Below are positions 77 to 55,195 of a stretch of DNA of 64,000 bases, piece by piece (position 1 is the first letter of the stretch; each line of letters starts with the position of its first letter). The notes beneath the pieces are model-generated. The model made no database searches. It was given only the letters and a program-made list of their open reading frames with translations, and was not told where the DNA came from. Source of the stretch: a bacterium (GTDB lineage Bacteria; Sumerlaeota; Sumerlaeia; MVZB01); assembly GCA_021372575.1 (NCBI GenBank), contig JAJFUE010000185.1, forward strand, positions 14,018 through 78,017. The letters are read 5' to 3'. Position numbers and translations under genes: made by a program.

Positions 77-154
77 GGGGTCGTAGCTCAGTTGGTTTAG
101 AGTGCCGGACTGTCACTCCGGAGGTCGCGAGTTCAAGTCTCGTCGGCCCCGCCA
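77..154 (+). tRNA. tRNA-Asp (anticodon GUC), CCA encoded
   Basis: Hand-folded cloverleaf. Acceptor stem is GGGGTCG/CGGCCCC. Anticodon stem is CCGGA/TCCGG with loop CTGTCAC (GTC). T arm is GCGAG-TTCAAGT-CTCGT, followed by discriminator G and CCA. Confidence 0.9.
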
Positions 155-513
155 CTCAAAATAAAAGACTTAGCCGCCTTTTCGGGCGGCTTTTCTTTTG
201 CTTCACAATAGTTTTTTGCCATAATCCTGCCAATTTCATGCAGTCCCCTGCTCACCTGTATCCTGGCCATCTGGTCAAGCACTACCGCCAGCATCATGAG
301 AAACAGAGGCGTGTAGCGCCCTGGATCTTCGGCCGGGAATTGGTTGCCGGCTTCGAAGAAGTGATTCAATTCGTCGCGGGAAAACGGACGTTCCAAGTGC
401 CCATCGCCTTTGGAGCGTGATGGCGGGTTGATAGTGCAACCGTTTTCATTGAGAAGGCGCAGGATGGAGTGGATTTCATGCGTAACTTGCTCATGAAATT
501 CAAGGGAGGTTGA
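133..513 (-). pseudogene. Possible tyrosine-recombinase (integrase) remnant abutting the tRNA
   Basis: The open frame reads ...ERPFSRDELNHFFEAGNQ...RYTPLFLMMLA. This resembles the linker and start of the catalytic domain of phage-type integrases (xxLLFLLxLxTGxR). Similarity stops just before the expected TGxR Arg, and the frame runs into the tRNA 3' end. No catalytic R-H-R-Y region is present. Position next to attL fits an island integrase. Confidence 0.3.
172..198 (+). terminator. Rho-independent terminator after tRNA-Asp
   Basis: Stem GCCGCC / GGCGGC with loop TTTTCG, followed by TTTTCTTTT. Confidence 0.6.
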
Positions 514-1024
514 TTAAACTGAATTTGTTTTCAGACTCCCGCAATCGGCTGCATCGGCTGCCTCGCTTTGATCATTTGCAGAACGGCAAGCAAGAGCGCC
601 GCATCTACGCAATAAAAGACAGCCCGATTCTCTTCACCGAAGCAGTGCAGCAAACCGCAATTGCTCAGATTTTGCAAACTATTGGAAACAGCCCGAGGGT
701 CCTCCCCTCCCAACCAGAATTGAGCAACGCCACTCGCCGAATCACAGGCGTCGGGGTTACTGACGAAGTATTCCATAATGCGTATTTCGAGTTGCACGCC
801 TTGACACCTTAATCGACTGCTAATCCATCTATCGGATTCCAGCCAGACCCAGTTGAGGGTATGGACCATTACGCCCAATATAGACCAGATGGCTACGGCT
901 ACCGAAAATACTCGGTGTCAAGTTGCAATAATTTTGCGAGAGAATCAACAACAGCGATGGCGATTTAAAAAAAAATCCTCGCCCCACATCTATTACGAGA
1001 TGGACAGCAGGATCTTGGCAAAAT

Positions 1025-2461
1025 TTACAGGCTCAAATTTGCATTTCGCGCTTGTGCGTCAGGTTTGGGTTTTGAACTGAATTTCAGGAGTTTGTTGTAG
1101 ATTGTTTTTTCGCTGATGCCGAGCATGCGCGCAGAACGTGCCTTGTTGCCACGACACGTCTCGAGCGTCTGATCGATGGCTATCCGCTCGAGTTCTTCGA
1201 GCGTCAGCCCCGCCAGCGGCCGGGCCGACGTGGTTCTAATCTCCTCGGCTGCGTGCCGGAGCGGGATCCTCTCGGCGCCGATTTGCGCCTCGTCACAGAA
1301 CGCCGAGGCCTGCTCGAGCACGTTTTCCAACTCGCGCATGTTCCCAGGCCAGTGGTAATGCTGCAACTTATCGAGTGCCTCTTGAGTAAGGCACTTGGTG
1401 GGCTGGTTATTACGCCGTCCAGCGCGATCGAGATAATGCTCCACCAGCGCCGGGATGTCGCTCGGGTGCTCCCGGAGCGGCGGTATCGCCAAGCTCCGGA
1501 CATTTAATTGCAGGAACAGGTCCTCTCGGAACATCCGCTCTCGCACCATGGCCTGCAAATCCCGGTTCGTCGAGGCGATTAAGCGCACGTCAACATGGAC
1601 ATCGTGATCGCCCCCGACCCGCTGAAACCTGCCATTTTGCAGGAATGTTAACAGCCTTGGCTGCAGATCAAGCGGTATATCGCCGACTTCATCAAGGAAG
1701 AGCGTACCCCCCTCGGCCATTTCAACCCGGCCAAGCCGGCGCTCGGAGTCCGCGGTGAATGAGCCGCGCTCATGACCGAACAGCTCGGACTCAACCAGCT
1801 CGCGAGGCAGCGTCGTGCAGTTGACGGTGATGAACTGGCCGGCGGCGCGAGTACTCGCTTGATGTATCAGCCGCGCGAGCAGGCTTTTCCCGACGCCGCA
1901 CTCGCCGGTCAGCAGCAGGTTACCGTCGAGCGGCGCAAGCCGGAGGGCGTTTTCGAGAACCCGGCGCGAAACGTCCGAGGTGCCAATGTAAACCAAGGGC
2001 GGTTCCGGGCTGACGATCGCCTGACGAAGCCGACGATTCTCAAGGTGTAATCTCCGGTTCTCGCGCCGCAGCCGGCCAAAGCGCGCTGCTTGGCGCACCG
2101 TGCTGACGAGTTCCTCGGGATTAAATGGCTTGGCTACATAATCAAACGCGCCATTTTTGCTCGCGCGGGCTGCGGCACGGATATCGGAATGCGCTGTGAT
2201 CATGATTGTCTGGATGTCGGGATGAATCCGCGTCATCTCAGCCAGACATTGCAGCCCATCGAGCACCGGCATACTCACGTCAAGCAGCGCCACATCGAGG
2301 TCCTCTGTCGCCTGGTCGAGCGCCTCACGACCGTTGCGAGCGGTCAGCGTGCGGAATCCCTGGCGCTCGAGCGTATAGTTGAGCAGTGTTCGGATATGCG
2401 CATCATCGTCAGCCACCAGAACCTGGATGGGAGTTTCTGTCATGTCGCCGGAAGTTTTCAT
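1025..2461 (-). CDS. NtrC-family response regulator (REC - AAA+ - Fis-type HTH)
   Basis: REC domain ([11 protein letters not shown]...LLDVSMP). Walker A is [23 protein letters not shown] sits where GAFTGA is expected. C-terminal HTH reads [15 protein letters not shown]. The ATG at 2461 is preceded by GGAGGA. Confidence 0.9.
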
Positions 2462-2598
2462 ACACCGTTTCCTCCGTTCAAATTGGATGACAACCACATC
2501 AGGGCGGAATGGGTCCCAAGGGTCCTATGGGACGAATGGGACCGATGGGACCTATGAATTTTCATTCCGCGTCCCGCACGCCGTATCGCATGGTGTAC

Positions 2599-4452
2599 TC
2601 AGGACCCAGGGCTGTCTTTTACGGGCAGCTTTACAAGCACTACTGTTCCGTAGCCGAGTTCGCTCCCAATTTCGACACTGCCACCGTGGCGCTCGATGAT
2701 TTCGTGGACGATCGCCAAGCCGAGGCCGGTCCCCGCAACCTCCATCCCCGGTCGGTGCGCGCGATAGAAACGCTCGAAAACATGCGGCAGATCGGTTTGC
2801 GAAATGCCGATGCCGGTATCGGTCACGGTGAGTGTCAAGCCGTCATGGTCGCCTGATGCGCCGACCGTGATCGTACCGCCGGGGGGGGTGAACTTGATGG
2901 CGTTGCTGAGGATGTTGATGAGCACGCGCTTGAGAGCCTCGAGATCGCCGATCGGGCGCGGCAGTGACTCGGCGATTTCCAGCTTCAGGGTCAATGCCGA
3001 CGATTCGATCACCGGCGAGAGCATGGTGCAGGCGGCCTCGATGAGCGTGGGGATTTCAATCAAGCGCCGCTCCATTTTCATACGGCCGCTTTCGAGGCGC
3101 GAGATCTCGAGCATATCCTCGATCAAGGCCTCCAGCCGCTGCGTCTCCTGGTCGATGATGTCGAGGAACTGGTTGCGCAGCGATTCGGTCATGGCGCCGT
3201 CCTGGCGCAGCGCCTTGGTGAAGCCCTTGATCGAGGTGAGCGGCGTTCGCAGTATGTGGCTGACCGAGCCGACGAAATCGGTCTTGAACTGGTCGATCTC
3301 TCGTTCGCGGGTCACGTCGCGCAGGATAAGAACCCGGCCGGCGATGCGGCAGGCCGGATCGACCCATGCGCTCGCCACGATGCGTAGCGTTCGCGGGCAG
3401 GGCTCGTGCAACACGAGCATGATCTCCTCGGCCCGGTCGGGCTGGCAGGCTTCGAGCATTTCCTTGAGGCGCGCAGGCGGGGGCGTGCAGTCGCCGAACA
3501 GCGAGGCAAGCATGCTGCCGGTGCCGGCCTGTCCGGTCACCTCGAGGAGCCCACGCGCGATGTGATTCATCATCGTGACACGATGATCGAGATCGGTGAC
3601 GATGACGCCATCGCCGATGCCGCGCACGATGAGCTCGAGGCGCTTGGCTTCCTGGTTGAGCCGCTCGTTGACGGTCTTAAGCTGCTCATTGGCGAGAGCG
3701 AGTTCGGAGGCCTGGCGCCCGACCTCGATCTCGGCCTCGCGCCGGGCTGTAATGTCTAGCCCGTAGAGGTTTAAATACTTTTCACCGGCCACCGGGGCGC
3801 AGACTATCAGCCATGTGTGGCCAGCAACGGTCAACTCGAACTGGCAGACAAGATTGTCGGCGAGGCAGCCGCAGACGCGTTCGAGCGGCTCCGACGGCAG
3901 CGGCCGGCCGACCTGGACCGACCATGCCTCAAGGAGTGGCGCGCTCGCCGTGTTGGCATACGTCAGCACGCCGGCATCGTTCACACGCATCACCGGATTG
4001 GGATCTACGGCCGGAAAGCGCGCCATGCTGGCCAGCAGCGTGCACATCTGTGTCTCGAGCGTGACGTCTCGGATCGAGCCAAAGTATCCTTCGATCGCGC
4101 CATTCGCATCGCGGATGATCGTCGCCGTGACGAGCGCATCAATGACCACGCCGTTGAAGGTATCGAGAGTGAGCCTGGCCTCACGGACAAAGCCCTCCTG
4201 CTCAAGGCGTCGGAAGAAATCTTCGCGAAGAGCACGGTCGGTGATCATCTCGGCGAGCGAGATTCCATCGCAGCCAAGGCCAATTCCGAGCAGGCGCACG
4301 GCGGCCGAATTAAGCTCAATGAATCTGCCGGCGGAATCAACCATGAACCACGGCTCGGCGACCTGCAGGAAAATACGGCGATAGTGATCGGGATCGGAGT
4401 CACACAAGTTGACACTGCCGCACATTTCTATATTCAGTCTCGCGAGGTCCAT
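2599..4452 (-). CDS. Cytoplasmic multi-PAS sensor histidine kinase
   Basis: H-box FVGSVSHILRTPLTSIKGF and HATPase G-boxes DTGIGI / GTGLGLAIV. Long N-terminal PAS-like repeats and no obvious TM segment. SD GGGAGGGG lies before the ATG at 4452. Confidence 0.9.
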   Translation of the reverse strand: MDLARLNIEMCGSVNLCDSDPDHYRRIFLQVAEPWFMVDSAGRFIELNSAAVRLLGIGLGCDGISLAEMITDRALREDFFRRLEQEGFVREARLTLDTFNGVVIDALVTATIIRDANGAIEGYFGSIRDVTLETQMCTLLASMARFPAVDPNPVMRVNDAGVLTYANTASAPLLEAWSVQVGRPLPSEPLERVCGCLADNLVCQFELTVAGHTWLIVCAPVAGEKYLNLYGLDITARREAEIEVGRQASELALANEQLKTVNERLNQEAKRLELIVRGIGDGVIVTDLDHRVTMMNHIARGLLEVTGQAGTGSMLASLFGDCTPPPARLKEMLEACQPDRAEEIMLVLHEPCPRTLRIVASAWVDPACRIAGRVLILRDVTREREIDQFKTDFVGSVSHILRTPLTSIKGFTKALRQDGAMTESLRNQFLDIIDQETQRLEALIEDMLEISRLESGRMKMERRLIEIPTLIEAACTMLSPVIESSALTLKLEIAESLPRPIGDLEALKRVLINILSNAIKFTPPGGTITVGASGDHDGLTLTVTDTGIGISQTDLPHVFERFYRAHRPGMEVAGTGLGLAIVHEIIERHGGSVEIGSELGYGTVVLVKLPVKDSPGS

Positions 4453-7809: not shown

Positions 7810-8517
7810 TCACCTTTGGCCTCCCATTGATTTGCCCACTTTTGTCTCAGCTGGCGGCTTGGTCATTGCGGAATTTTTGCGGGTTAATAACCCCACTCCT
7901 GTTGCCGATTCTCTGGGCCTGAGATATTCTTTTAAAACTCTGTGACCCATATAACCCAACGGCAGCGCAATCAATATTAGGCACACTGCCGCCAGCATTT
8001 CAATGGGCACCCCGACCCTTGCAGAATTTCTGTAGACCATATCTCGAACTAATATTAACGATTCTCCGGCCCCGATATATTTTATTAGCACTTGTTGACC
8101 CATGTAGCCCAACACCGGCAGCGCAATCACTAATATGCACATGGCTGCGGCCAGCTTATAACCATATCGCCTGAACCCGGCTGCACATGTTTCGCGGTAG
8201 GTCGCCTGCTCAGTCTCGCACTCATTGATGCGAACCATAAGGTTCGCGACCTGTTCCTCGATGCTTGGCTCGCCCGCCATCCCGCGCCGCAGCTGCTCCA
8301 AATTATAGCAAAGCTCGGAAGTCCGTTCCCACTCGGCCCGGCATTCGGGACACTCGCTCAAGTGCTTCTCGATGGCGCCAAACTGAAGCCGGGACAGCGA
8401 GGGATCCCAGTGGTGATAAGCGCCCAGACGCAACCTGACCCACCGGCAACTGGGTACGCGGCCAGCAAGCAATTGCAGGCATTCTTTCAACCCACGGGCT
8501 ATTCTTCTCAGCTTCAT
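7810..8517 (-). CDS. Anti-sigma factor (zf-HC2) with duplicated TM hairpin
   Basis: HLSECPECRAEW zinc-finger anti-sigma motif. Two near-identical TM modules are present (CILVIALPVLGYMGQQVLIKYI and CLILIALPLGYMGHRVLKEYL). It lies downstream of an ECF sigma gene. Confidence 0.75.
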   Translation of the reverse strand: MKLRRIARGLKECLQLLAGRVPSCRWVRLRLGAYHHWDPSLSRLQFGAIEKHLSECPECRAEWERTSELCYNLEQLRRGMAGEPSIEEQVANLMVRINECETEQATYRETCAAGFRRYGYKLAAAMCILVIALPVLGYMGQQVLIKYIGAGESLILVRDMVYRNSARVGVPIEMLAAVCLILIALPLGYMGHRVLKEYLRPRESATGVGLLTRKNSAMTKPPAETKVGKSMGGQR

Positions 8518-8552
8518 CTGCCTTTGCCCTCTCTTCTGCCCTCTGCATAGAC

Positions 8553-8580
8553 ATGTCGAAAAGGGACGATTTTATAACAT
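8553..8580 (-). promoter_or_regulatory. ECF-type promoter candidate ATGTTA-N15-TCGACAT
   Basis: Motif read on the minus strand, 35 nt upstream of the anti-sigma ATG. The same bipartite motif occurs at 12391-12417 (-) and 28490-28516 (+). Confidence 0.45.
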
Positions 8581-8638
8581 CGACGCATAAAAATATTTCA
8601 ATTATTTTGGGGATGATTGATATTATATGAGTTACGCA

Positions 8639-9202
8639 TCAGCTTTTCTTGTCTTTTTCCATGATCGCGCGAAGACGGGCGCGTGCGCGCCACTCATAAA
8701 CCTGAATAGATGCCTCCCCCAGCCCTAGCCGGCGAGCTGCCTCGGCTTCCGAGCAGCCCTCGAAATACAGCAGGTTGATTACATGCCGAAGCCGGTCGGG
8801 CAGTTGCGCGACAGCCTCGCGAAGTTGGTCCAGACCTTCTGCCTGTGTGTCAGAACCCGAGCCGCTCTGAGTTACCGACCATGTCTGGGCTGTTTGCTTG
8901 AGTTCTTTTTCGATCCGCTTAGTTTTCGACACCTGCCGCCCCTTGGCCAAGAGCAGTTTCTTGGCGATCCCGAACAGATAAGGGCGGACCTTGTCTTTTT
9001 CGATCCTCCCCCGCTTGGCCCAATATGTCAAAAAGCTATCTTGGACCAGGTCTTCCACATCGTCCCGTCGGATGTTACGGCCAGCAAAAAAGCGCGCGAG
9101 CGCGGACCAAAGATTTCCATAAGGCTCGTCGGTGGGCCCGAGATCAGTATTGGAAGACCTATTGTCCAGCTTTTTCATGTGTTCATGATGGTTCCCTGTC
9201 AA
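8639..9202 (-). CDS. ECF-family RNA polymerase sigma factor (copy 1)
   Basis: Region 2 reads DVEDLVQDSFLTYW. Region 4 HTH reads LPDRLRHVINLLYFEGCSEAEAARRLGLGEASIQVYEWRARARL. The likely ATG start is at 9178. Confidence 0.85.
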   Translation of the reverse strand: MTGNHHEHMKKLDNRSSNTDLGPTDEPYGNLWSALARFFAGRNIRRDDVEDLVQDSFLTYWAKRGRIEKDKVRPYLFGIAKKLLLAKGRQVSKTKRIEKELKQTAQTWSVTQSGSGSDTQAEGLDQLREAVAQLPDRLRHVINLLYFEGCSEAEAARRLGLGEASIQVYEWRARARLRAIMEKDKKS

Positions 9203-9507
9203 ACCCTGGGGTTATTCTTCCCGAAAATTTACGCCGGATGCAATCTTCAAGTGTTTCGTTCGGACATTTCCCCATAAATTCCCACGCTTAGCGAAGGAAA
9301 ACGGATCGGTCTGGGTCGAATCCTCAGCGTGTGTTTGATGAGGCTCGAATGAAGGTCGCAGGCGGTTGCGCCAGACGATCGAGGTGGCTCGGCAGGGAGG
9401 ACATGCTGGAGACGGCACCCAGAGCAAGCCGCGCGACCGGACTCCGCATGGACGGACGCATGGGAGAGTAGTCAGGTCGTGATTCTCACCACTAATCTCT
9501 ATCACCA

Positions 9508-10467
9508 CTAGAATATATCAGGTAGCAACGATTGGATATCATCGATCTTCGGAAGATCATCATCCCAATACCGCAAGGACTTGCCGTCGTGGATCAGGTA
9601 AAAGCGTGGTGGTGCATTGCCGATGAATTCAAAGAACTTAAGCGGCTGAACACGTGCCATTGGGAATTGGGGCTTGAACTGCTCGCGGAACTGGCGGAGG
9701 GTGTCTTCCTCGCCAAGAATCAGGCCGACAACCGGTAACTCGCCGAACTCCTTGACAAGAGTGTTCATCCTCGAAACCAATTCCTGGCAATGCGAACAGG
9801 AATCACTCATAAAGCCGACAAAATATATACCCTTGCCCAAGTCGAGAGCTCGATTTGAATCGTCTTTGATAGCGAACTGCGCAAAGGGGCGATCCGTTGT
9901 GGTGGGGGGCTTTGCTACAGCCAGCCCGGCGTCAGACTTGACCGGTTTACCGCCCCAAAAGCTCCAGGCGAGACTGGCAATCAGCAAAAGCGGGCAGAAT
10001 GCGGCACATGCCGTCTGCAGTTTCTTGCTCCTGATATCCAATTCAAACGATTGGCTCTGAAATGATTGCGATGCACCACTTATTGCGATCACATTCATTC
10101 CGATCATGATAACATTCTTTATAATCGAGGCAATCGGCGATATTTTGATGAATGAGCCGAAACACCCGCAGTCTTCGAGGCCTTTGAAAAGCCAGCCGTA
10201 AACGATGATCCCGGTGAAGAAGATGAGTATCGCCAGGGAGAGCTTCAAGCATTCCACCCTAAAATGCTTACTTATGATCATGACCAAGCCGAGGAGAAAC
10301 TCGATAGAGATTATGAAAATGGCGATGGCTGTGACAAGTGTTGGGTTACGAATAATGTTAAAGTATGAGATCAGCATGGCGAAGCTTTGGACTTCGATTG
10401 CTTTCGCGATGGAGGAAAGCAAGAAAATGCTTCCAAGCAGGCAGGTAGTGAAGATGAACCGCTTCAT
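9508..10467 (-). CDS. MauE/DoxX-like membrane domain fused to TlpA-like thioredoxin (CxxC)
   Basis: Multi-TM N-terminal half with the CGCFG motif typical of MauE. The C-terminal thioredoxin fold has FMSDSCSHCQEL. Start taken at MKRFIF. Confidence 0.75.
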   Translation of the reverse strand: MKRFIFTTCLLGSIFLLSSIAKAIEVQSFAMLISYFNIIRNPTLVTAIAIFIISIEFLLGLVMIISKHFRVECLKLSLAILIFFTGIIVYGWLFKGLEDCGCFGSFIKISPIASIIKNVIMIGMNVIAISGASQSFQSQSFELDIRSKKLQTACAAFCPLLLIASLAWSFWGGKPVKSDAGLAVAKPPTTTDRPFAQFAIKDDSNRALDLGKGIYFVGFMSDSCSHCQELVSRMNTLVKEFGELPVVGLILGEEDTLRQFREQFKPQFPMARVQPLKFFEFIGNAPPRFYLIHDGKSLRYWDDDLPKIDDIQSLLPDIF

Positions 10468-44393: not shown

Positions 44394-44410
44394 TTGAACA
44401 GGAAACAGCT

Positions 44411-45572: not shown

Positions 45573-46403
45573 TCAGTGAGTTTCTTCGCTGCTGGCAGGC
45601 TGGATCTCTACCCGTTCCGCCCCGGTCGGCGCCTTGAATTTGAATTCGGCCGCATCCACGGCTGACAGGGGCTCCACGCTCAGGACCCGAAGGACATATT
45701 GGGGCCTTCCGGCGAGGGTCTTGTAATCGATCGCAATTTTTCGCAAGACGGGCGCGTCACCCGCATCAACCCAGATCTGCCAATCAAAGTCGCCCCCGGT
45801 GAATGCCAGGTGATGGCAGGCAGTCCCATCGATCTCGCTCATGCCGACGTATTCGGACGAGGTCATTTGTTCGAGGAAGCTCTTGCCGGGATCCTCATAG
45901 AAAAAATCGGCCGCCGGTACCGCCGTATGGTAGCGGACCATCAGCGTGTCAAGCGCCTGATCGATCGTTCCCGGATCCGGGATCTGGGCGTAGATATTTT
46001 CATCGCGGTCCCAAATGGTGACGGTCTTGCCGTCCTTGTAGATGGTGCGGTCGGCCACGTCGCCTGTGCTCTCAATCTTCAGAAGCCCCGGTCGGCTGAC
46101 GACGCCCTGGCGCACATGCGTCATCTGGATCCTGCGGCCATCGGGCCGGACATCATCAAACTCGTCAGCAAACTTGAACCGGAAAGCATGCAGCGCTTTG
46201 CCACGGCTCGCCAGCTCACGAATGATCTGTTCGGCCTTCGGATCACGACCTTGTATTGCCGTGGTCGCGGCATCCGAACTTCCCATGCTTTGGTTACCGG
46301 CCGCTGTGAGCGCGGGTTTGGCCGGCTGCACGGTCGAACACCCCGCCATGGTCATGAAGAGAACCGTCAGCACGGTCCAAAAGTTGAGTCGTCTTGCCAT
46401 CAT
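45573..46403 (-). CDS. Lipoprotein, DUF2092/LolA-like
   Basis: Lipobox MAGC. The C-terminal pattern DFDWQIWVDAGDAPVLRKIAIDY...FKFKAPTGAERVE resembles DUF2092. Confidence 0.55.
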   Translation of the reverse strand: MMARRLNFWTVLTVLFMTMAGCSTVQPAKPALTAAGNQSMGSSDAATTAIQGRDPKAEQIIRELASRGKALHAFRFKFADEFDDVRPDGRRIQMTHVRQGVVSRPGLLKIESTGDVADRTIYKDGKTVTIWDRDENIYAQIPDPGTIDQALDTLMVRYHTAVPAADFFYEDPGKSFLEQMTSSEYVGMSEIDGTACHHLAFTGGDFDWQIWVDAGDAPVLRKIAIDYKTLAGRPQYVLRVLSVEPLSAVDAAEFKFKAPTGAERVEIQPASSEETH

Positions 46404-46474
46404 CTCTCCTCCGGTTACATAAGATTTCTTTTTCCAGTTTTTGATCTGTTCATCTCAGCGAGCGCTTGCGATCG

Positions 46475-48088
46475 TTACTTCTTATCCTTCACCTGAATCG
46501 TTGAAAGATCATGCTTGCCCGTGAAGCTCCACCAGTCAGCCTGATTCTTCATCTGTTCGCGGATCTGCTCCGGCACCAGTTCCTGGCCGACGCGGTTTTG
46601 CCAGCCGCCCCCGAGCGCCTTGTAGATCGCGACGTAATCTGTCGTGGCCTGCCCGCGCCAGGCCCACATCTGATCCTGCTGCGAAGCCAGGAATGTCAAC
46701 GCGGCCAGGGGAACGGAAACGATGACTTTGCCTTCCTTGTAGGCGGCCATCGTTGTTTGGGCGGCGTCGAGCGCCTCATCGACGTTGTCTTCGAGAACGG
46801 TCGTTTCGTCCTGCGCCTTCAGGAATGAATACAAGGAATTCTCTACTTCGAGATTGGCGTTCAGGACCGTTTCCCGGTAATTGAGCAACGCCTCCTGGAA
46901 TTGGGCGTCCTCGTTGCGGACTAATTCCACGGTCACCGGGTAAAGGATCAGGTTCGAGACATTCAACAGCCCGCCGTAGGTGCTGCTGACGCTGTCGGAC
47001 CGGAAGAATTTGTCGGAATCGGATGAGCTGAGTCCAATCGAGCCGAAGATGTTGAACGAGGGCAGAATGGCAGCCTTGGCGATGCCAACGCGGGCGCATT
47101 GGGCCGCCGCCATGTGTTCGGCCACCCGCACGTCGGGGCGCCGGCGCAGCAGGTCGGCCGGGATGCCCACGACGTTTTGCACCGGGGCGACTGGAATGGC
47201 GCCGGTGGTGCCGATGTCTTGATGCAGGGTTTGCGGCGCTTTGCCCAGCAAGACGCACAGGTTGTTTTCAGCCTGGCGGCGCTCCGCTTCGAGCGGCGGG
47301 ATCCAGCTTTGCACGGTGCCTGCCAGCAGTTCAGCGAGCTGGACGTCGGTGATCAGCGCCTTTTTGTTTTTGTATCGTTCCTCGGTGAGCGCCACGAATC
47401 TGTCCAGGGTGTCATTCAGGCTGTTTAATGCGGCAAGCCGTTGATCGAGCGTCCGGATCCGGATATAGGTTCGCGCCACTTCCGCCGCCAGCGAGACCAT
47501 GATGGCGTCATAACTGGCAAACGCCGCCTTGAGCTGTTCGCCGGTCGAGCGGAACAATTGACGATATTTCCCCCACAGGTCCATTTCCCAAACCGCGTCG
47601 AAACCGGCGCTATAGACATCCATTTCCGGCGTGACACTGACCGCGGGCAGATTGCTCATCAATTGCTCGCGAACGGCCGGCGGAAGTTTTCTCTGCGGCT
47701 CCGTGAGACTCACGCTCACTTCCGGCTTGACGCTCGTGCTGTAATCGTTGTGCGAAATCGAACCCTGGCCCGTGATGATCGGCGCGAAACTCCAACCCGC
47801 GACGGCATGGCCGACGCGCGCCTGCACGATGCGAAGCGAGGCCGCCTGCAAGGTCAGGTTCTGGTCGAAGGCCTGCCGGATGAGCGAGTCGAGAACGGGG
47901 TCGTTGAGGCTCTTCCACCATTCCACCCGATCGACCGGCTGGCCGGTGAATTGCGGCTGACCCGTGTCTCGCCACTGCTGGGCGATCGGGACCTCCGGGG
48001 TCTTGTACTTCGGGCCCACCACGCAACCGGAAGCCAGCAGGACCATGGCGATCGGGGCGCATAATCCCAGCACTGATTTCTTCAACAT
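46475..48088 (-). CDS. Outer-membrane efflux factor (NodT/TolC family lipoprotein)
   Basis: LLASGCVVGPKYKTPEVP is the NodT-type lipobox and start. There are two OEP repeats. No MFP or RND partner is present in the window. Confidence 0.8.
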   Translation of the reverse strand: MLKKSVLGLCAPIAMVLLASGCVVGPKYKTPEVPIAQQWRDTGQPQFTGQPVDRVEWWKSLNDPVLDSLIRQAFDQNLTLQAASLRIVQARVGHAVAGWSFAPIITGQGSISHNDYSTSVKPEVSVSLTEPQRKLPPAVREQLMSNLPAVSVTPEMDVYSAGFDAVWEMDLWGKYRQLFRSTGEQLKAAFASYDAIMVSLAAEVARTYIRIRTLDQRLAALNSLNDTLDRFVALTEERYKNKKALITDVQLAELLAGTVQSWIPPLEAERRQAENNLCVLLGKAPQTLHQDIGTTGAIPVAPVQNVVGIPADLLRRRPDVRVAEHMAAAQCARVGIAKAAILPSFNIFGSIGLSSSDSDKFFRSDSVSSTYGGLLNVSNLILYPVTVELVRNEDAQFQEALLNYRETVLNANLEVENSLYSFLKAQDETTVLEDNVDEALDAAQTTMAAYKEGKVIVSVPLAALTFLASQQDQMWAWRGQATTDYVAIYKALGGGWQNRVGQELVPEQIREQMKNQADWWSFTGKHDLSTIQVKDKK

Positions 48089-48137
48089 GTCTGTCTGACT
48101 CCTGCCTTTATTTGAATTTCAAAATGGGTGAATGATT

Positions 48138-49433
48138 TCAGCGGTCCTTCAACACAATCGCAAGCGGCCCGTCCGCCGCCTGCATGATGTGCGACAGAGG
48201 CAGGCCGTGCTCCAGCAACTGCGTCATCCCGCGCAGATACTTGCGAATATGGAGAAAGAATTTCTTGTATCCCGGGCACAGATAATGCAGCCCCGGTTCG
48301 CCATTGTAAGTCGTCATAAAGCGATGCTTGGGGCATCCACCGCGGCACGCCGCAAGGACGTCGCAGCTTTTGCACGCATGCGGCAGGGCCGTCTCTTTGG
48401 CGATCCCAAAACCCGACTGGATGGATCTCTCAACCATGTCCGGCAGATTATCCGCGGCGATATTCCCCAACCGATGCTGCGGATAGACGCAGTGATCGCA
48501 GGCATAAACATCGCCGTTATGCTCAATCACGACGGAACGACCGCATTGCTTCGCGTGGATGCACACCGGGGATGGATTGCCGATCCATGCGTTGAGCGCC
48601 CATTCGAAATTCATGACGAAGACTTGGCCCACGTCACAGCGGACCCATTCCTCGTAGATCGCAATCAGGAACTCGCCGTATTCGCGAGGGTTAACTGTCC
48701 AGGGCGTCACCTCGGTCGAAATGGTTTTTGAATTCAGTTCAGCGGGACCCGCCAGGCTCAGGCCGCACTGCGCGGCCGTGTCATCGGGCATGCGCTCCAC
48801 GATCGGCGTGAACTGGATGAATTCCACGCCTTCGTCTTTAAAGAAATGATAAATGTCGAGCGGGTGCTTCGCCGCATCGTGGGCGACACACGCCATCACG
48901 TTGTACTCCACCCGGTGCTTCTGGAGAAGTTTCAGCCCTCTCATCACCTCGTCGAACGTGCCGTTGCCGCTCCGGTCGCGGCGATAGCGATCATGAATCT
49001 CCCGCGGCCCGTCGAGACTGAGGCCCACCATGAAATTGTTTTTCTTTAAGAACGAACACCACTCGTCATTGAGCAAGGTCCCGTTGGTCTGAAGCGAATT
49101 GGTGATGGTTTTCTTTCGCACGTAAGGTTTTTGCAGATCGACGACTTTTTTGAAGAAGTCGAGCCCGAGCAGCGTCGGCTCGCCGCCCTGCCAGACGAAT
49201 TCGACGACGGGCGTCGGCTGCGAGTCGATATAATTCGAAATGAACGCGCGAAGCACCTCGTCGGACATCCGCATCTTCTCGCCGGGCCCGAAGAGCGCGT
49301 GTTTCTCAAGATAGAAGCAATAATCACAATTCAGATTGCACGCAGGCCCGATCGGCTTGGCGACTACGTGCAAGCCGTGTGCGGCCTGGCTATTCAAGGT
49401 GGTATTTTCGGGACTGCTCATAACACCTCTCAT
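48138..49433 (-). CDS. Anaerobic sulfatase-maturating enzyme (radical SAM/SPASM)
   Basis: CNLNCDYCFY (CxxxCxxC) plus C-terminal SPASM Cys clusters (CGRSVVIEHNGDVYACDHC, CKSCDVLAACRGGCPK). It is adjacent to a sulfatase gene. Confidence 0.85.
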   Translation of the reverse strand: MRGVMSSPENTTLNSQAAHGLHVVAKPIGPACNLNCDYCFYLEKHALFGPGEKMRMSDEVLRAFISNYIDSQPTPVVEFVWQGGEPTLLGLDFFKKVVDLQKPYVRKKTITNSLQTNGTLLNDEWCSFLKKNNFMVGLSLDGPREIHDRYRRDRSGNGTFDEVMRGLKLLQKHRVEYNVMACVAHDAAKHPLDIYHFFKDEGVEFIQFTPIVERMPDDTAAQCGLSLAGPAELNSKTISTEVTPWTVNPREYGEFLIAIYEEWVRCDVGQVFVMNFEWALNAWIGNPSPVCIHAKQCGRSVVIEHNGDVYACDHCVYPQHRLGNIAADNLPDMVERSIQSGFGIAKETALPHACKSCDVLAACRGGCPKHRFMTTYNGEPGLHYLCPGYKKFFLHIRKYLRGMTQLLEHGLPLSHIMQAADGPLAIVLKDR

Positions 49434-49486
49434 TGGTTAGCACTGCTGCGCGGGGCGTGTTGGGCACGCCCCGCGCGATTGTGACA

Positions 49487-51916
49487 TTAATCCGACAAGG
49501 CCTTCTTCTGAGCGGCTTCGGCGCCGGCCTTGGCCGCCGCTGTTTTCTCGCCCGCCGGCATTGCCTTGAGTTCAACGGTGACCTTGTCGATCTTGCCGGT
49601 GAATTGATACGGCGCGGGAATCCCGTAGTCTTCCACGACCGGAGTTTCCCCGTCCTCACCGACATCGGCCCCTTCATCACCCGAGAACATCAAGGGTTGC
49701 GTGCGTTCGATCCGGCCTTCGGCGACTTTCTCGCCATTGACAAGGATCGTGCCGACGCCGCCCTTGGCCAGGCCGCCGCCGTCGTAGGCGAATTCGTAGC
49801 GGATCGTTGCTTTTCCGGCCGGCAGGGCCTTGTCCGCGGCAATCGTGAAGCGCTGCAATCCGAGGAAGTTGTAGGTATAGACCGGCTTCCCGTCCTTCAG
49901 ATACAGGCTCCAACCGCCGAAGCGCCCGGCCTGGCAGAGGATCACCCCGTTGGCGCCGCCTTCGGGAATGGTGACCTCCGCGGTAATGGTATGGGAGCTG
50001 TTCTTGGTGTTGATGAAAACGTTCTCGGACATTCCGATCATGCCATCATAGACGGTCAGCGAGGTGCGCCCGGCCATCAGGTCGGGCCGCCCCACGAGGG
50101 CCGGATTAAGCCTCTCAATGCCGCGGTCATCAATGGGAAACACGTAGTTCTTGACCGCTTCCTCCATGAACAAGTCCTGCATTTCCTTGAGCTTGCCCGG
50201 GTTCTTGGCCGCCAGATCGTTGGCCAGGCTGAAGTCAGCCCGCGTGTCGTAGAGTTCCCAGACATCCTTCTCCAGCGTCGCGCGCGGCTGGGCTTCCCAC
50301 GGGGCCTTATGCACGGTTCCCGCAAGCCAGCCATCGTGATAGATGGCGCGGTTGCCAAAAATTTCGAAATACTGGGTCAGGTGGCGGTCCTTGGCCTTCG
50401 CGTCATCGAAGCTGTACGCCATGCTGACGCCCTCGATGGGGGTCTGGGGAACACCGTTGACCACCTTGGGCTCCGGCAGGCCCGCGGCTTCCAGGATCGT
50501 CGGGGCGATGTCGATCAGGTGATGCCACTGCGAACGCACTTCATTCTTGGCCTTGATGGCCTTTGGCCAATAGACGACCATCCCGTTGCGTGTGCCGCCG
50601 TAATTCGAGGCGATCTGCTTGGTCCAGGTGAACGGCGTATCGCCCGCGACAGCCCAGCCCGCGGCATAGTGGCTGTAAGTACTCGGCCCGCCAAGTTCGT
50701 CGTAGTGTTTCAATACGCTCTCGACCGTTTCATTCACGCCGTTGAAGTAGGTCATCTCGTTGAACATGCCGGCAATGCCGCCTTCGGCGCTGGCGCCGTT
50801 GTCGCCAACGATGTAAAAAATCAGCGTGTTGTCGAGCTGTCCCATGTCGCCGATGGCATCGACAAGACGGCCGATCTCGGTATCGGCATACTCGCCGAAA
50901 CCGGCATAGACCTCCATCTGGCGCGTGAAAAGCTTCTTCTCGTCATCCGACAGCTTGTCCCAGTCCTTGATCGCAGAGGGCTTGGGGGCGAGCTTCGTGC
51001 CGGCGGGCACGACGCCCAGCTCGATCTGGCGGGCAAGGGTCTCTTCGCGCAATTTGTCCCAGCCCATGTCGAACTTGCCCTTGTATTTATCGATCCATTC
51101 CTTCGGCACCTGGTGCGGCGCGTGGGTCGCGCCCGGCGCGAAGTAGATGAAGAACGGCTTGTCGGGCGTCAGGGACTTTTCCGACTGCATCCACTTGATC
51201 GCCTGGTTCGTCATGTCGGTCATGAAGTGATAGTTGGGATCCTTCGGCACCTCGATCTTGGTCATGCCCTCATAGATCGCCGGCGCCCACTGGTTCGTTT
51301 CGCCGCCCATAAAGCCGTAGAATTTGTCGAAGCCGCAGCGGGTCGGCCAGCGGTCGGTCGGCCCGGAGGGGCTGACTTCCCACGCGGCCGTCTCGTGGCT
51401 TTTCCCAAACGCGGCCGTCGAGTAGCCGTTGTAACGCAGCGTGCTCGCCAGCGGCGCCACGCTGTCTGGGCGCTGCCCGGTATTGCCCGGGAAGGCCGTC
51501 GCGGTCTCCATGATGGAACCGGTGTTGCACACATGGTGATTGCGCCCGGTGAGCAGGCACATCCGCGACGGCGAACTGAGCGCCGCCGTGTGGAACTGGT
51601 TATATCGCAGGCCGTTCTGTGCCAGGCGATCCAGGGTGGGCATGTTGATGGGACCGCCGTAAACGCCGGACTGGCCGAACCCCATGTCATCGATGAGGAT
51701 GATGAGCACGTTCGGGGCGCCGGCCGGCGCCTGGGGATTGAAACGCGGCGGCGCCGTGGCATCCCTGACGTCGAGCACGGTGCTGTGCGGGAACTGGGGT
51801 TCCGGGATCGGGAGTTTTGTTCGATCCAGCCCAGCCTCCCCGGCGGCTGTTGCAGCGCAGGCGGCACCTAGCGCAAACCCGAATCCGAATGTTGACCTCG
51901 CGGTTCTCAGTTTCAT
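49487..51916 (-). CDS. Ser-type sulfatase (arylsulfatase family) with long C-terminal extension
   Basis: LIILIDDMGFGQ and TAALSSPSRMCLLTGRNHH (S-x-P-x-R instead of C-x-P-x-R). Signal peptide present. Confidence 0.85.
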   Translation of the reverse strand: MKLRTARSTFGFGFALGAACAATAAGEAGLDRTKLPIPEPQFPHSTVLDVRDATAPPRFNPQAPAGAPNVLIILIDDMGFGQSGVYGGPINMPTLDRLAQNGLRYNQFHTAALSSPSRMCLLTGRNHHVCNTGSIMETATAFPGNTGQRPDSVAPLASTLRYNGYSTAAFGKSHETAAWEVSPSGPTDRWPTRCGFDKFYGFMGGETNQWAPAIYEGMTKIEVPKDPNYHFMTDMTNQAIKWMQSEKSLTPDKPFFIYFAPGATHAPHQVPKEWIDKYKGKFDMGWDKLREETLARQIELGVVPAGTKLAPKPSAIKDWDKLSDDEKKLFTRQMEVYAGFGEYADTEIGRLVDAIGDMGQLDNTLIFYIVGDNGASAEGGIAGMFNEMTYFNGVNETVESVLKHYDELGGPSTYSHYAAGWAVAGDTPFTWTKQIASNYGGTRNGMVVYWPKAIKAKNEVRSQWHHLIDIAPTILEAAGLPEPKVVNGVPQTPIEGVSMAYSFDDAKAKDRHLTQYFEIFGNRAIYHDGWLAGTVHKAPWEAQPRATLEKDVWELYDTRADFSLANDLAAKNPGKLKEMQDLFMEEAVKNYVFPIDDRGIERLNPALVGRPDLMAGRTSLTVYDGMIGMSENVFINTKNSSHTITAEVTIPEGGANGVILCQAGRFGGWSLYLKDGKPVYTYNFLGLQRFTIAADKALPAGKATIRYEFAYDGGGLAKGGVGTILVNGEKVAEGRIERTQPLMFSGDEGADVGEDGETPVVEDYGIPAPYQFTGKIDKVTVELKAMPAGEKTAAAKAGAEAAQKKALSD

Positions 51917-52127
51917 TTACTGCTCTCCTTCAGAGATTTCATAAGTGACTATTGCTTGCCGGCGAACACCGTCGCCGCGGTTTTGACGGCTCAGTGCGCC
52001 CTGTGATCCTTCACGCGATTCTTCTCGATCAGGACCGCATAGCAGTTGTCGCTGACTTGTTCCATCTTCATGGGCTTGATCTCCTTTTGGGCGCGGCCGC
52101 AGTCTCGTCATCCAATTTGGCTTTGAG

Positions 52128-52487
52128 TTAATGCCCTCCCGCCGGGGTTCTCGACGGGTCGAGAAGCTCCATGCCCCAAATCCTGGAAGTCTCGTAAAAA
52201 CAGATCTCGGGCTGCACGGTGGACAATTCCATCGCAGCAAGAATCTTATGATAGTGCGTCGATTGGATATGGCGCTCGATACTGGCCAGGGACTCCCAGT
52301 GCTCCAGGTAAAGCACCGTCTGGTCTTCTCCCGATCCCTCATAGATTGCACACGCCAGACACCCCGGCTGGATCGCCGTCGGGCCGACCACCCCGCGCAG
52401 GATACCCAGCAGTTCCCGCCGGTTGGCGGGCGAGGGAAGAATTTTCAGCATGAAAAGCATCATATTTCGGTCCGATCCGGCCCTCAA
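52128..52487 (-). CDS. ABM/Dabb-like small protein (putative monooxygenase fold)
   Basis: About 110 aa with the pattern LYLEHWESLASIERHIQSTHYHKILAAME, typical of ABM domains. The start is uncertain. Confidence 0.5.
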   Translation of the reverse strand: MRAGSDRNMMLFMLKILPSPANRRELLGILRGVVGPTAIQPGCLACAIYEGSGEDQTVLYLEHWESLASIERHIQSTHYHKILAAMELSTVQPEICFYETSRIWGMELLDPSRTPAGGH

Positions 52488-52526
52488 CGCATCAAGAAAT
52501 CACGCACTCATGGCCGGATAGTCTTA

Positions 52527-52542
52527 GAAATAAGCGTGCCGG
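52527..52542 (-). promoter_or_regulatory. Weak sigma54-type -24/-12 candidate (CGGCACGCTTATTTCT)
   Basis: Read on the minus strand: GG-N10-TC with GGCACG and TTTC where TTGC is expected. It lies between the sigma54 activator gene and the ABM gene. Confidence 0.25.
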
Positions 52543-52657
52543 ATCTGGCCAGAAGCTTCAGAAGGCTTATAGAGACTTGAAAGACAAGGATTTAGAATGA
52601 CTCAAAGCGCAGTTGGAGGGCGTGTAAATCTTAGGTGGAAAGTCTGAAATATCGCAC

Positions 52658-54658
52658 CTAGGACGATATATCGTCCTTTTGGGGGCGATGGGGAATGCCC
52701 AATTTATCCATTCTGGAGCCGAGCGTGGAGGGATTGATGTGAAGGAGCGCGGCCGCGCCTTGGGGCCCCTTGACGCGCCAGCCGGATTTCTGCAACGCGT
52801 TCAGGATATGGCGGCGCTCAGCCTCTTCCAAGGTGAGCATGACCGGGCTTTCCGCCTCTTGAGTTTTAGGCAATTGCACTTCCAACCGGCTGCCGTGGCT
52901 AAGAATCATCGCCCGCTCAATAATGTTACGCAATTCACGAACGTTTCCCGGCCAGGAGTAACCCTTGAGCAATTCCATTGTTTTCTGCGAAACCGACTCG
53001 ATCTTCTTCCCCATATTTTTGCTGAACTCGTCAATGAACGCCCAGGTCAGCAGGGGGATGTCCTCGGCCCGTTCGCGAAGCGGCGGCACCTCGATGGGGA
53101 ACACGCTCAGGCGATAATAGAGGTCCTTGCGATATTCGCCCTGGCGCACGGCCTCGGCCAGATTCTTGTTGGTGGCCGCGATGATCCGCACGTTGACCTT
53201 GATCGTTTTGGACGGCCCGCCCAGCCGCTCGAATTCACCTTGCTGGAGGACGCGCAGGAGCTTGCTTTGCAACTCGAGCGACAGTTCCCCGATCTCGTCT
53301 AAAAAAATCGTTCCCCCATCGGCCAACTCGAATCGTCCGATCTGCCGGGTCATGGCTCCCGTATAGGCGCCTTTCTCGCGGCCGAACAATTCGCTTTCGA
53401 TCAGCGATGCGGGCAGGGTGGCGCAATTGACCGTCACCATCAGCCGGTCTTTGCGCTGGCTCTGGGCGTGAATGGCGCGGGCCACCAGTTCCTTGCCGGT
53501 TCCGGTCTCGCCCGTGATCAGCACATGGGAATCCGTCGGGGCGACCTGTTCGATCTGCTTGAGCACCTGCTGAATCGACTGGCTCCGGCCGATAATTTCG
53601 CCGTGTCCCTGTGAGATCACGATCTCCGCCCTCAGGTACTCTGCCTCGACCTGCAGGCGATCCTTCAAGTCTTTAATTTCTTGAAAATTTTGCTTATGTA
53701 TCTCGTCCGAGCGTTTTCGCGCCAGGGCGTTGACGAACACCTCGCCGAGCATGCGCAGACGCGGGATGTATTCCTGGGGCCATATGCGAGGGTGCTGGCA
53801 CGAGACGCCGATAATGTGGTCGAGCGTTCCGCCCATCAGCAGTGGAATCGATAAAAAAGCATCCACGCCGAGTTGCCGGTGGGTCTCCAGATCCACGCTG
53901 GCTTCCGGCGGGAGCTCCGCGGATGAATTCATGCAAAAGACTTCTCTTTTCAGGACGACTTGTTTATACAGCCATGGCAGGTGCGGCACGAGGTCTGTGC
54001 CGGGGGGCAGGGGCAATGCATTGGATTCCTCCCGGCCGAAATGCGTCAGTCGGACCTGGGCGTGATCGGGCGAGACCTCCATGAATCCGACCAATTCCAC
54101 GTCCAAAAACTCGCGGACCTCGTTGAGACCCGAGACAATCTCCTGATCAACCTGCTCAGAGGGAAGATTCGTGAATCGGGAAGAAAGATCCGCCAGGAGC
54201 TGTTCAAACCGAAGCCGCTGGGCCAGGGCCTCCTCGGCGCGCCTGTGCTCGGTGACCTCCTTGCCGAATACGGAAATGCCGATCGTCTCTCCGTTTCGCA
54301 GCAAAGGGCTGAATGTCAGCTGCAGGATATGCAGGCCCGAGCTGACCAGATACTCCTCGACAAAGGATCCTTCCCGCAAGGCGCGCTGATAAAGCGCATG
54401 CCATTTTGCCGCGAACGCCGGCGGCAGCATGTCTTCCGGTGGCATGCCGATCCGGATCTCGATGTGATGTTCCTGTAAAAAGTAGTCCCTGAGCGCATGG
54501 TTGAAGGTGAGCAGACCGTAATGCATGGGGTCCACCGACCAAATCATATCGTTCGTGCTGTTTATAAGGGCGGACAACAATGCCTGTGACTCGGCGAGGG
54601 CGTCATCCGACCGCTTATGTTCGGAAACATCCTCCATCGGAACACCTCCAAAAGCCAT
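52658..54658 (-). CDS. Sigma54-dependent transcriptional activator with PAS and GAF sensor domains
   Basis: GETGTGKELVARAIH, ESELFGREKGAYTGA, and C-terminal HTH AAALLHINPSTLGSRMDKLGI. Start set at 54658 or 54637, because the longer ORF overlaps a plausible plus-strand gene. Confidence 0.85.
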   Translation of the reverse strand: MAFGGVPMEDVSEHKRSDDALAESQALLSALINSTNDMIWSVDPMHYGLLTFNHALRDYFLQEHHIEIRIGMPPEDMLPPAFAAKWHALYQRALREGSFVEEYLVSSGLHILQLTFSPLLRNGETIGISVFGKEVTEHRRAEEALAQRLRFEQLLADLSSRFTNLPSEQVDQEIVSGLNEVREFLDVELVGFMEVSPDHAQVRLTHFGREESNALPLPPGTDLVPHLPWLYKQVVLKREVFCMNSSAELPPEASVDLETHRQLGVDAFLSIPLLMGGTLDHIIGVSCQHPRIWPQEYIPRLRMLGEVFVNALARKRSDEIHKQNFQEIKDLKDRLQVEAEYLRAEIVISQGHGEIIGRSQSIQQVLKQIEQVAPTDSHVLITGETGTGKELVARAIHAQSQRKDRLMVTVNCATLPASLIESELFGREKGAYTGAMTRQIGRFELADGGTIFLDEIGELSLELQSKLLRVLQQGEFERLGGPSKTIKVNVRIIAATNKNLAEAVRQGEYRKDLYYRLSVFPIEVPPLRERAEDIPLLTWAFIDEFSKNMGKKIESVSQKTMELLKGYSWPGNVRELRNIIERAMILSHGSRLEVQLPKTQEAESPVMLTLEEAERRHILNALQKSGWRVKGPQGAAALLHINPSTLGSRMDKLGIPHRPQKDDISS

Positions 54659-54805
54659 AAGGATTCCTTCTTGCCAACAGATTCTCCCAAGACGCCCTGC
54701 AAGGCAACCGCAGATTGAAAGCCGAGTACGATTATCCGAAACAATCATCCGCAAAATTCCGACGTAGTGTGCGTCGTATTCATGAACTGACGGCAGAAGT
54801 GACGC

Positions 54806-55042
54806 ATGGCCGATTCCGTGCTCAAAGTTCATCGCATTCTGCGCGAGCATCCGATCGCCACGGCGGGTTGGCTGGCAGAAAAAACCACTCTCACGCCGGC
54901 GCCCATTAACAAGGCATTGTCCCACCTTCAGAAGATTGGAATCGTCCGCGAGCTGACCCAACGGAAACGCAACCGCATGTTCAGTTATTCAACGTACATC
55001 GAGATTCTGAACAAAGAGACGGAAGGCCCGAAATTGCGATAG
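54806..55042 (+). CDS. Small winged-helix protein (resembles the C-terminal wHTH of Fic-family proteins)
   Basis: TAGWLAEKTTLTPAPINKALSHLQKIGIVRELTQRKRNRMFSY. Its stop codon coincides with the start of the island arm repeat. Confidence 0.4.
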   Translation: MADSVLKVHRILREHPIATAGWLAEKTTLTPAPINKALSHLQKIGIVRELTQRKRNRMFSYSTYIEILNKETEGPKLR

Positions 55043-55195
55043 TCCTTGCAATAGTTTGGACGTTTCGGGGACGGGATCATCCATGTCATGGTGTCATGAC
55101 GCGGCTGATTTTATGCAACTTGGCATCGGTGGAATCTCAAATCCGCCCTGTCACTGCGGAGGTCGCGAGTTCATGTCTCGCCGGCCCAGCCACTC
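55034..55195 (+). repeat. Island right-end arm plus degenerate tRNA-Asp 3' fragment (attR-like, copy 2)
   Basis: 55151-55195 matches 113-157 with 4 mismatches in 45. The upstream ~117 bp is homologous to 39339-39455. Confidence 0.75.

Follow-up and report, generated by a model that had tools for sequence, protein, structure and literature searches.

In a 64,000-nt stretch of a contig from the uncultured lineage Sumerlaeota (GenBank JAJFUE010000185.1, positions 14,018 to 78,017; hereafter the window), an intact tRNA-Asp(GTC) gene is followed by two displaced copies of its own 3' part, and the three fragments bound two blocks, here called island A (162–39455) and island B (39505–55147), as a first-pass annotation made from the sequence had recognised. 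The locus is probably a tandem array of sibling islands that targeted tRNA-Asp and have since either decayed or come to need an integrase acting in trans, in the manner of the cis-mobilizable elements (CIMEs).

Copies of the tRNA-Asp 3' part

The only tRNA gene detected in the window by ARAGORN and Rfam is the tRNA-Asp(GTC) gene, to which the repeat copies relate as follows.

77–154, + strand: intact tRNA-Asp(GTC) gene (ARAGORN; Rfam RF00005, 68.5 bits), anticodon loop at 110–116 and anticodon at 112–114
113–161, + strand: repeat copy 1, attL core, from the second anticodon base to the CCA end plus 7 nt past CCA
39456–39504, + strand: repeat copy 2, displaced tRNA 3' fragment at the junction of islands A and B, 49/49 identical to 113–161
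55148–55195, + strand: repeat copy 3, displaced tRNA 3' fragment, 4 mismatches in 48 (44/48) including T-loop A58 to T

The exact 49-mer shared by copies 1 and 2 was matched in none of 100 shuffles, and copy 3 was recovered with a blastn E value of 2.7e-13 in a search within the window; no fourth copy was found in the 64 kb with blastn down to a word size of 7. All three copies are in the same orientation (+) and in register with the 3' end of the tRNA, with identity starting at the second anticodon base (113) in copy 2 and at the first base of the loop (110) in copy 3. The first-pass annotation had reported the 49-nt identity, a start of identity in the anticodon loop and a third copy with 4 mismatches in 45 nt at 55151–55195, and these were confirmed, the last being consistent with the slightly longer copy listed above. 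One of the mismatches in copy 3 changes C to G in its half of the anticodon stem and re-establishes pairing with CCGCC in the arm that precedes this copy (arm B, below). Two Logan contigs from run SRR15035648, L001 (window 132–3241) and L062 (window 21397–39485), are identical to the window and each ends exactly 30 nt inside a repeat copy, which is where a k=31 graph is expected to break at a true repeat.

Arms to the left of the displaced copies

Copies 2 and 3 are each preceded by an arm, and the two arms (~115 bp, non-coding) are homologous.

39339–39455, + strand: arm A, the element-side arm of an attR-like junction, 82–85 % identical to 55034–55147
55034–55147, + strand: arm B, homologous to arm A (sequence alignment)

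The homology begins abruptly at a doubled 10-mer (TTGCNATAGT-N2-TTGCAATAGT); the DNA further left is unrelated, as are the genes that have the arms on their upstream side, which encode AbiEi (arm A) and a sigma-54 activator (arm B). Arm A opens with TTGCCATAGT-N2-TTGCAATAGT and closes with GGTGGA-N8-TCCGCC CT, and the pattern of the arms can be written as TTGCNATAGT-N2-TTGCAATAGT ... GGTGGAATCTCAAATCCGCC. In a search of the window, exact copies of the 10-mer were confined to the two arms, and the arms showed no homology to the 5' half of the tRNA or to its upstream flank. The final 24 nt before the core, which contain the dyad GGTGGA-N8-TCCGCC, are identical in both arms, and are followed by CCGCC/CTRTCAC/TSCGG, a partial copy of the anticodon stem-loop dyad of the gene (CCGGA/CTGTCAC/TCCGG). 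Retention of a half-stem dyad would be expected of a core site centred on the loop, that is, of Islander class A. The 10-mers in the arms, together with the imperfect copies found after the first terminator (below), resemble arm-type integrase sites flanking an attP.

Inverted repeats that differ in sequence lie at equivalent positions in the arms (GGGCGTCAAAACATGCCT at 39394–39411 and GTCATGGTGTCATGAC at 55089–55104), each followed by a T-rich stretch, and could be a protein-binding dyad or a terminator that is conserved in structure only. Uneven conservation within the arm was also considered, but the longest identical run in that alignment was 22 nt (permutation p = 0.15), which is no evidence of constraint.

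Sequences following each copy

172–199, + strand: terminator T1, hairpin at 172–191 plus T-tract, −19.1 kcal/mol, z = −5.2
39509–39548, + strand: terminator T2, hairpin at 39509–39541 plus T-tract, −23.5 kcal/mol, z = −5.7
55215–55239, + strand: T0, weak hairpin (6-bp stem, 55215–55230) plus T-tract, −9.4 kcal/mol, z = −1.0

The first-pass annotation had placed a different hairpin and T-tract after each copy. This applies to copies 1 and 2, which are followed by strong hairpins, but less clearly to copy 3, as T0 fits a terminator consensus scan yet folds no better than shuffled sequences. The 16 nt separating copy 3 from the T0 hairpin resemble the T1 leader, and T2 has no homology to T1, nor to the relatives L063 and L064 described below. 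Imperfect copies of the arm 10-mer are found after T1, at 205–225 (TTGCCATAAT at 216–225), and one is also located directly after T1 in both relatives, which would be consistent with T1 belonging to the other attP arm.

Shared left ends of islet A2 and island B

The homology between the islands is not restricted to the arms. The rightmost part of island A, here called islet A2, and island B also correspond at their left ends, where the following features are found.

32833–33063, + strand: DarG-like macro pseudogene, in two pieces, 78 % amino acid identity to the macro gene of island B
33064–33237, + strand: leader and first ~19 codons of the next gene, ending ...SNRDS, homologous to 40717–40788 in island B
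33123–39271, unstranded: cargo of islet A2 (Pfam, NCBIfam, PADLOC), made up of the next five entries
33123–35912, + strand: SNF2 helicase, ZorD/DpdE-like
35950–37293, + strand: SWIM/HTH protein
37315–38052, − strand: ERCC4-HhH nuclease
38059–38484, − strand: AbiEii, truncated (141 aa; model positions 2–95 of 283)
38471–39271, − strand: AbiEi, full length
39696–41411, + strand: left module of island B, 84–90 % DNA identity to L063 and L064, made up of the next three entries
39696–40205, + strand: DUF523/2-thiouracil-desulfurase-like gene (Pfam)
40216–40716, + strand: DarG-like macro gene (NCBIfam DarG, 2.7e-49; PADLOC DarG, 1.6e-52)
40731–41411, + strand: DUF2293 gene (Pfam)

The shared left block (32833–33237 in A2 and 40255–40788 in B) has ~84 % DNA identity and on the island B side includes the macro gene, a short spacer and the first 19 codons of the DUF2293 gene. 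In the A2 pseudogene, the first ~12 codons of the macro gene are gone and there is an internal deletion of ~192 nt. Hence, A2 (32831–39455, ~6.6 kb) has both ends as in island B and everything between them is different and, judged by the common arm and the common left-end block, A2 and B are siblings with different cargo. Though island A had been taken for a single insertion of ~39 kb in the first-pass annotation, it consists instead of this ~6.6-kb sibling of island B and a 32.6-kb block (A1, below) at its left end.

The intact macro gene of island B matches only the N-terminal macrodomain of DarG, and the gene upstream of it encodes DUF523 and not the DarT of a DarTG system. It may be an orphaned antitoxin, or the DUF523–macro pairing may have a function of its own. 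The truncated AbiEii toxin of A2 is probably inactivated. The leader and ~19 codons (...KVF[IV]SNRDS; 33140–33237 and 40700–40788) are common to the otherwise unrelated SNF2 helicase and DUF2293 genes, and the homology stops at the same codon in both, which looks like a recurrent recombination breakpoint or a cassette boundary.

Related loci in other genomes

Two related loci were found via the closest homologues of the macro protein, namely L063 (contig JAWDGN010000110.1, assembled from metagenomic DNA of an enrichment culture that dechlorinates chloroform; PMC11324032) and L064 (a 2.1-kb Logan contig from SRR18006931). In L063, 9139–9331 is 90 % identical to window 1–194, which covers the upstream flank, tRNA-Asp and T1, and only 134 nt further on, 9465–10437 is 84 % identical to window 39704–40667 (DUF523 and macro). 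The DUF523 and macro genes of L063 (9465–10459) are followed by an insertion sequence (IS) transposase, two unknown genes and ruvB. L063 9247–9309 is also 86 % identical to window 55148–55211. L064 begins inside the tRNA 3' end and T1 (1–87 is ~91 % identical to window 131–216), has ~100 nt in common with the L063 linker, and then carries DarT, macro (90 % identical to island B) and DUF523 (86 %), in that order, at 688–2094. A remnant upstream of DarT in L064 (279–369) is similar to window 33111–33202 (score 63, shuffle maximum 26). Thus, L063 and L064 both have DUF523 and macro genes 0.2–1.6 kb from the intact tRNA, and neither A1 nor A2 is present in either of them.

L063 and L064 differ from each other and neither spans the right flank of the window; the sole similarity on the right-hand side is an isolated 29-nt match (93 %) between intergenic DNA at window 62877–62905 and the spacer downstream of ruvB in L063 (17198–17226). 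DarT lies upstream of macro homologues that are 64–86 % identical in L064 to L067, and distant macro homologues (64–71 % identity) are paired with DarT in unrelated contexts.

Block A1

217–32830, unstranded: block A1, 32.6 kb, absent from L063 and L064, bounds from the L064 and L063 alignments

A1 sits where L064 has the linker, DarT and the first macro codons. From this position, we read it as a later insertion or substitution in unit A that would have replaced DarT and the start of the macro gene. The junction at 32830 (~32.8 kb) was assembled independently in Logan contig L062. A1 includes no mobility gene and no recognisable terminal repeats, and nothing convincing was found at its ends by way of a target-site duplication or repeat. 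A possible DUF523 remnant at 346–381 was discarded, as its score of 27 was equalled by 4 of 200 shuffles. The G+C content of A1 is mosaic (45–58 %) and is low across about half of its length, with 47 % in 4.5–17.7 kb, 45 % in 28.5–32.8 kb and 54 % across an operon resembling a type II secretion system (T2SS), compared to the two-component genes, islet A2, island B and the DNA right of copy 3, which have 58–62 %.

Probable repeated integration at tRNA-Asp

On the reading we favour, related elements integrated more than once, by site-specific recombination, into the 3' part of tRNA-Asp(GTC). In its favour are the three copies in register, the start of identity in the anticodon loop, the homologous arms with their partial dyad, the left-end block common to A2 and B, the lack of A1 and A2 in the relatives, and a G+C content of 45–47 % in 4.5–17.7 kb and 28.5–32.8 kb against 59–62 % elsewhere. 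At every event, the gene would be split in or after the anticodon loop, with the element bringing a replacement 3' part and the previous 3' part being pushed downstream, behind the arm of the element. Unit A (162–39455) would at first have been a small defence islet with T1, a presumed DarT, the DarG-like macro gene, SNF2/SWIM, the ERCC4 nuclease and AbiE, and would later have gained the 32.6-kb A1 in place of DarT and the first macro codons. Unit B (39505–55147) would have brought DUF523, macro and DUF2293 together with envelope, sulfatase and sigma-54 cargo. Since an integrase is not encoded here, the units would be either fixed relics or mobile only with an integrase in trans. We infer that integration was the mechanism and that T1 and the DUF523/macro region are part of the element family and not of the host backbone; the relatives would have lost the distal parts by deletion.

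Several results weigh against this history. No integrase, excisionase, serine recombinase, transposase, relaxase, type IV secretion system (T4SS) or phage protein was detected in the 64-kb window, in scans that short pseudogene fragments of an integrase could escape. The scans were Pfam on all selected open reading frames (ORFs) to 64 kb, except three T2SS genes (24983–28391) that were read from their translations, and NCBIfam and PHROGs on ORFs without an assignment, with frames checked by G+C content at third codon positions (GC3) and PADLOC used for defence genes. The tyrosine-integrase elements proposed in the first-pass annotation therefore lack an integrase or any other recombinase in either island or the flanks, and the units are not intact integrase elements. 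A 397-aa ORF and the other ORFs without an assignment were considered as cryptic recombinases and rejected, as they have no Pfam, NCBIfam or PHROGs match; the 397-aa protein is hydrophobic and looks like a multi-pass membrane protein. Nor do the islands resemble an integrative and conjugative element (ICE), as the secretion genes are of the T2SS/pilus type and VirB4, coupling protein (T4CP) and relaxase domains were not found, or a prophage, as there were no Pfam phage domains, a single PHROGs match (function unknown) and nothing in the IMG/VR scans. Islander requires an integrase in every member of an array, and here there is none. A family member that does carry an integrase was also not found in IMG/VR or the JGI metagenomes using the arm and the tRNA 3' part: the arm 24-mer had 0 matches in IMG/VR, as had a tRNA 3' 35-mer, and the single JGI metagenome match to an arm 20-mer was dismissed as due to chance because it lies inside a coding region with dissimilar flanks.

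The relatives raise a further difficulty, as they share T1, which follows the intact tRNA, and not T2, which follows copy 2. After integration, the original downstream sequence of the host must follow the distal fragment. Hence, integration fits only if an element brought T1 and the first integration is older than the separation of these genomes, and L063 and L064 would in that case be eroded occupied sites rather than empty ones. In addition, a second tRNA fragment or arm was not found within 11 kb downstream in L063, and the breakpoints of the relatives do not lie at the repeats but after T1, and upstream of DUF523 or inside the macro gene. In the comparison with empty sites that was suggested in the first-pass annotation, L063 and L064 do lack the content of island A, but neither represents a clean empty site.

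Order of insertion

It had been proposed in the first-pass annotation that island A is the younger and island B the older insertion. This does not follow, and the order of insertion is not inferable, because an incoming element may use either the intact tRNA or the distal fragment and the final map is the same. The mismatches in copy 3 are no marker of age, as they may be due to decay or may have been inherited from the attP copy of the element itself. Gene decay runs opposite to a younger A: in A, the macro gene has become a pseudogene, AbiEii is truncated and DarT is missing, while the genes of B have open reading frames. In addition, the left end of A is old, since T1 is shared at ~90 % with two other genomes.

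Alternative explanations

Tandem duplication of one ancestral island by unequal crossing-over between direct repeats, with subsequent divergence of ~15 % and a swap of cargo, would account for units that share both ends (the macro block at one, the arm and core at the other) at similar levels of identity (~82–85 %) and for the lack of any difference between the middle copy and the gene copy, which could be seen at a recombinant junction. Its second step also needs no integrase, fitting the absence of one. However, the cargo between the shared ends is wholly different, T1 and T2 are unrelated, as are the linkers, though a duplication would have copied them, RecA acts poorly on repeats as short as 49 nt, and the first integration is needed all the same. 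We consider this route unlikely. We also doubt that the units are still mobile as non-autonomous CIME- or satellite-like elements, excised and integrated by a tyrosine integrase from another part of the genome or from an incoming helper with the same tRNA-Asp site. The idea has precedents among streptococcal and other elements (PMC5704250), and the core pair flanking A is intact (49/49), the arm is well kept, the doubled 10-mer is present at both distal junctions with an imperfect copy after T1, and the island B reading frames are open. Set against this, no helper or integrase is seen in the window, the arm was not found elsewhere (IMG/VR, JGI metagenomes), one of the 4 mismatches in copy 3 affects the putative core dyad, decay is evident in unit A, and the relatives show irregular deletions and not precise excision. 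It is a similarly speculative step from there to an integrase-less island family in an uncultured lineage, with the two units and the related left ends of L063 and L064 as members, that is kept as functional attachment-site cassettes, each with a conserved arm and doubled 10-mer, a core dyad and its own terminator, and shuffled by a tRNA-Asp-specific integrase in trans; were this so, the tRNA-Asp locus would be a cassette-exchange hot spot for defence and envelope genes.

An artefact of assembly, in which contigs of different strains or replicons were joined through the 49-nt tRNA segment, is very unlikely. The source is evidently a metagenome-type assembly and the Logan k=31 contigs break inside the repeat, so that short-read graphs alone cannot pair the two sides. 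However, L063, from a metagenome whose accession lists both Illumina and PacBio reads, runs unbroken through the tRNA, which is unique there, and confirms that the upstream flank and tRNA lead into T1. With that pairing fixed, arm A with T2 is the sole remaining pairing for the exact repeat, copy 3 is told apart by its 4 mismatches, and the homologies internal to A2 and B are independent of the joins. The first-pass annotation had named membership in a dispersed repeat family as a condition that would refute its reading. Such a family, or a small RNA gene, with no link to integration is effectively refuted as the source of the repeats. A transcribed unit might indeed have a hairpin and T-tract after each copy and conserved arms, but the 64 kb contain no more than three copies, each of them in register with the 3' end of the tRNA, Rfam at the gathering threshold finds only the tRNA, folding of the arm with its fragment is not above that of shuffles (z = −1.6 and −1.1), and the arm is absent from IMG/VR and matched in JGI only by chance.

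Relationship to known systems

The anticodon-loop sublocation is one of the two that are common for tRNA-targeting tyrosine integrases and accounts for 2083 of the 3919 islands in Islander, where 125 of the 3919 are in tandems of at least two and 4 in tandems of at least three (Hudson, Lau and Williams 2015; PMC4383910). As in Islander/TIGER arrays, the locus consists of an intact tRNA and then co-oriented displaced 3' fragments marking the island ends, the sequence that follows is particular to each regenerated or displaced end and, as in Islander class A, the identity block starts from the anticodon loop. Unlike in those arrays, one member, unit A, is mosaic and includes a secondary insertion of 32.6 kb. 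CIMEs, which have kept attL and attR and lost the genes for integration and transfer, have been described for Streptococcus thermophilus elements related to ICESt1 and for others, as has the accretion in tandem of decayed, integrase-less elements of this sort (PMC5704250). The units here correspond to CIMEs at the sequence level in that att-like repeats are kept and integration and transfer genes are absent, and would likewise form a tandem of related elements where a target gene has its 3' end. However, no functional ICE or integrative and mobilizable element (IME) partner is seen in the array, there are no T4SS or relaxase remnants and, hence, no sign of conjugative descent, and the lineage, probably Sumerlaeota, is a different one.

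Like the defence islands found near tRNA genes, A2 carries a macro pseudogene, the ZorD/DpdE-like SNF2 protein, the ERCC4 nuclease and AbiEi/AbiEii and, as at tRNA-adjacent defence hot spots, the relatives carry DarT and macro at the same place. None of the known defence systems is complete here, as DarT is absent, AbiEii is truncated and the SNF2 protein is without other Zorya or Dpd partners. The locus is of an already known kind, the ordinary footprint of repeated insertion, and calls for no new mechanism. Its value is as a clear case of foreign DNA being gained and eroded at one tRNA gene, in a lineage of which little is known, with a history that would include two sibling islands, a 32.6-kb secondary acquisition with a complete T2SS-like operon and regulators, remnants of toxin-antitoxin and defence systems and a DarG-like antitoxin that may be orphaned. 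It is also a warning that neither position in an array nor the number of mismatches in a fragment gives the order of insertion, and island finders that require an integrase (Islander) would miss this array.

Cargo genes and the right flank

Genes identified in A1 by Pfam encode a sigma-54 response regulator, a PAS histidine kinase and a C39 peptidase-DUF1573 protein, and further genes encode two extracytoplasmic function (ECF) sigma/anti-sigma pairs and MauE-like, TPR and beta-helix proteins; there are also three orphan genes. The T2SS-like operon includes pseudopilins, a secretin (22779–24986), a GspE-like protein (24983–26704) and a GspF-like protein (26722–27942). The secretin and a T2SS-G pseudopilin were identified by Pfam, while the GspE-like and GspF-like proteins and one pseudopilin were read only from their translations, with no family scan. 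This T2SS-like or pseudopilus operon (17773–28391) is complete, its pseudopilins have N-methylation motifs, and it is flanked by genes of lower G+C content (C39 peptidase-DUF1573, TPR and beta-helix). The two ECF sigma/anti-sigma (zf-HC2-like) pairs, at 7810–9202 and 10946–13030, are paralogous (34–39 % protein identity) and share a 128-nt DNA repeat (8327–8454 and 12171–12298).

Beyond its left module, island B carries the following.

41454–54637, − strand: island B cargo (Pfam; frames by GC3)

The cargo genes encode ecotin, a membrane protein, a histidine kinase, DUF6515 and DUF2092 proteins, an outer-membrane efflux protein, a radical-SAM/SPASM maturase, a sulfatase and the sigma-54 activator (52658–54637, P0137, 659 aa). 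To the right of copy 3 are genes for a large membrane protein, a radical-SAM enzyme, a methyltransferase, a family 2 glycosyltransferase (GT2), an epimerase/SDR fusion and a sulfatase. The 604-aa protein that adjoins copy 3 has no homologue above 34 % identity. For the radical-SAM gene (57230–58513), the best match in GTDB was 66 % over most of the protein (Lacunisphaera and other Opitutaceae metagenome-assembled genomes, MAGs), and none of 32 GTDB loci with homologues had a tRNA nearby.

The only close homologues with a named source, those of P0138 (56 %) and P0024 (71 %), come from Sumerlaeota, a weak indication that the window belongs to this group. The sigma-54 activator has a homologue with 56 % identity in a Ca. 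Sumerlaeia MAG (L068, 10001–14762), which shows partial synteny including DUF2092, has no tRNA or fragment, and is too distant to decide the matter. The activator and DUF2092 genes are close together and in the same order in the window (45573–54637) and in L068, where an unassigned 404-aa gene follows DUF2092, but in the window, unlike L068, the sulfatase, radical-SAM/SPASM maturase and outer-membrane efflux genes are intercalated between them. The DUF6515 gene (44411–45541, − strand) includes six tandem 81-nt units at 44801–45301 that are 63–71 % identical to the reference copy.

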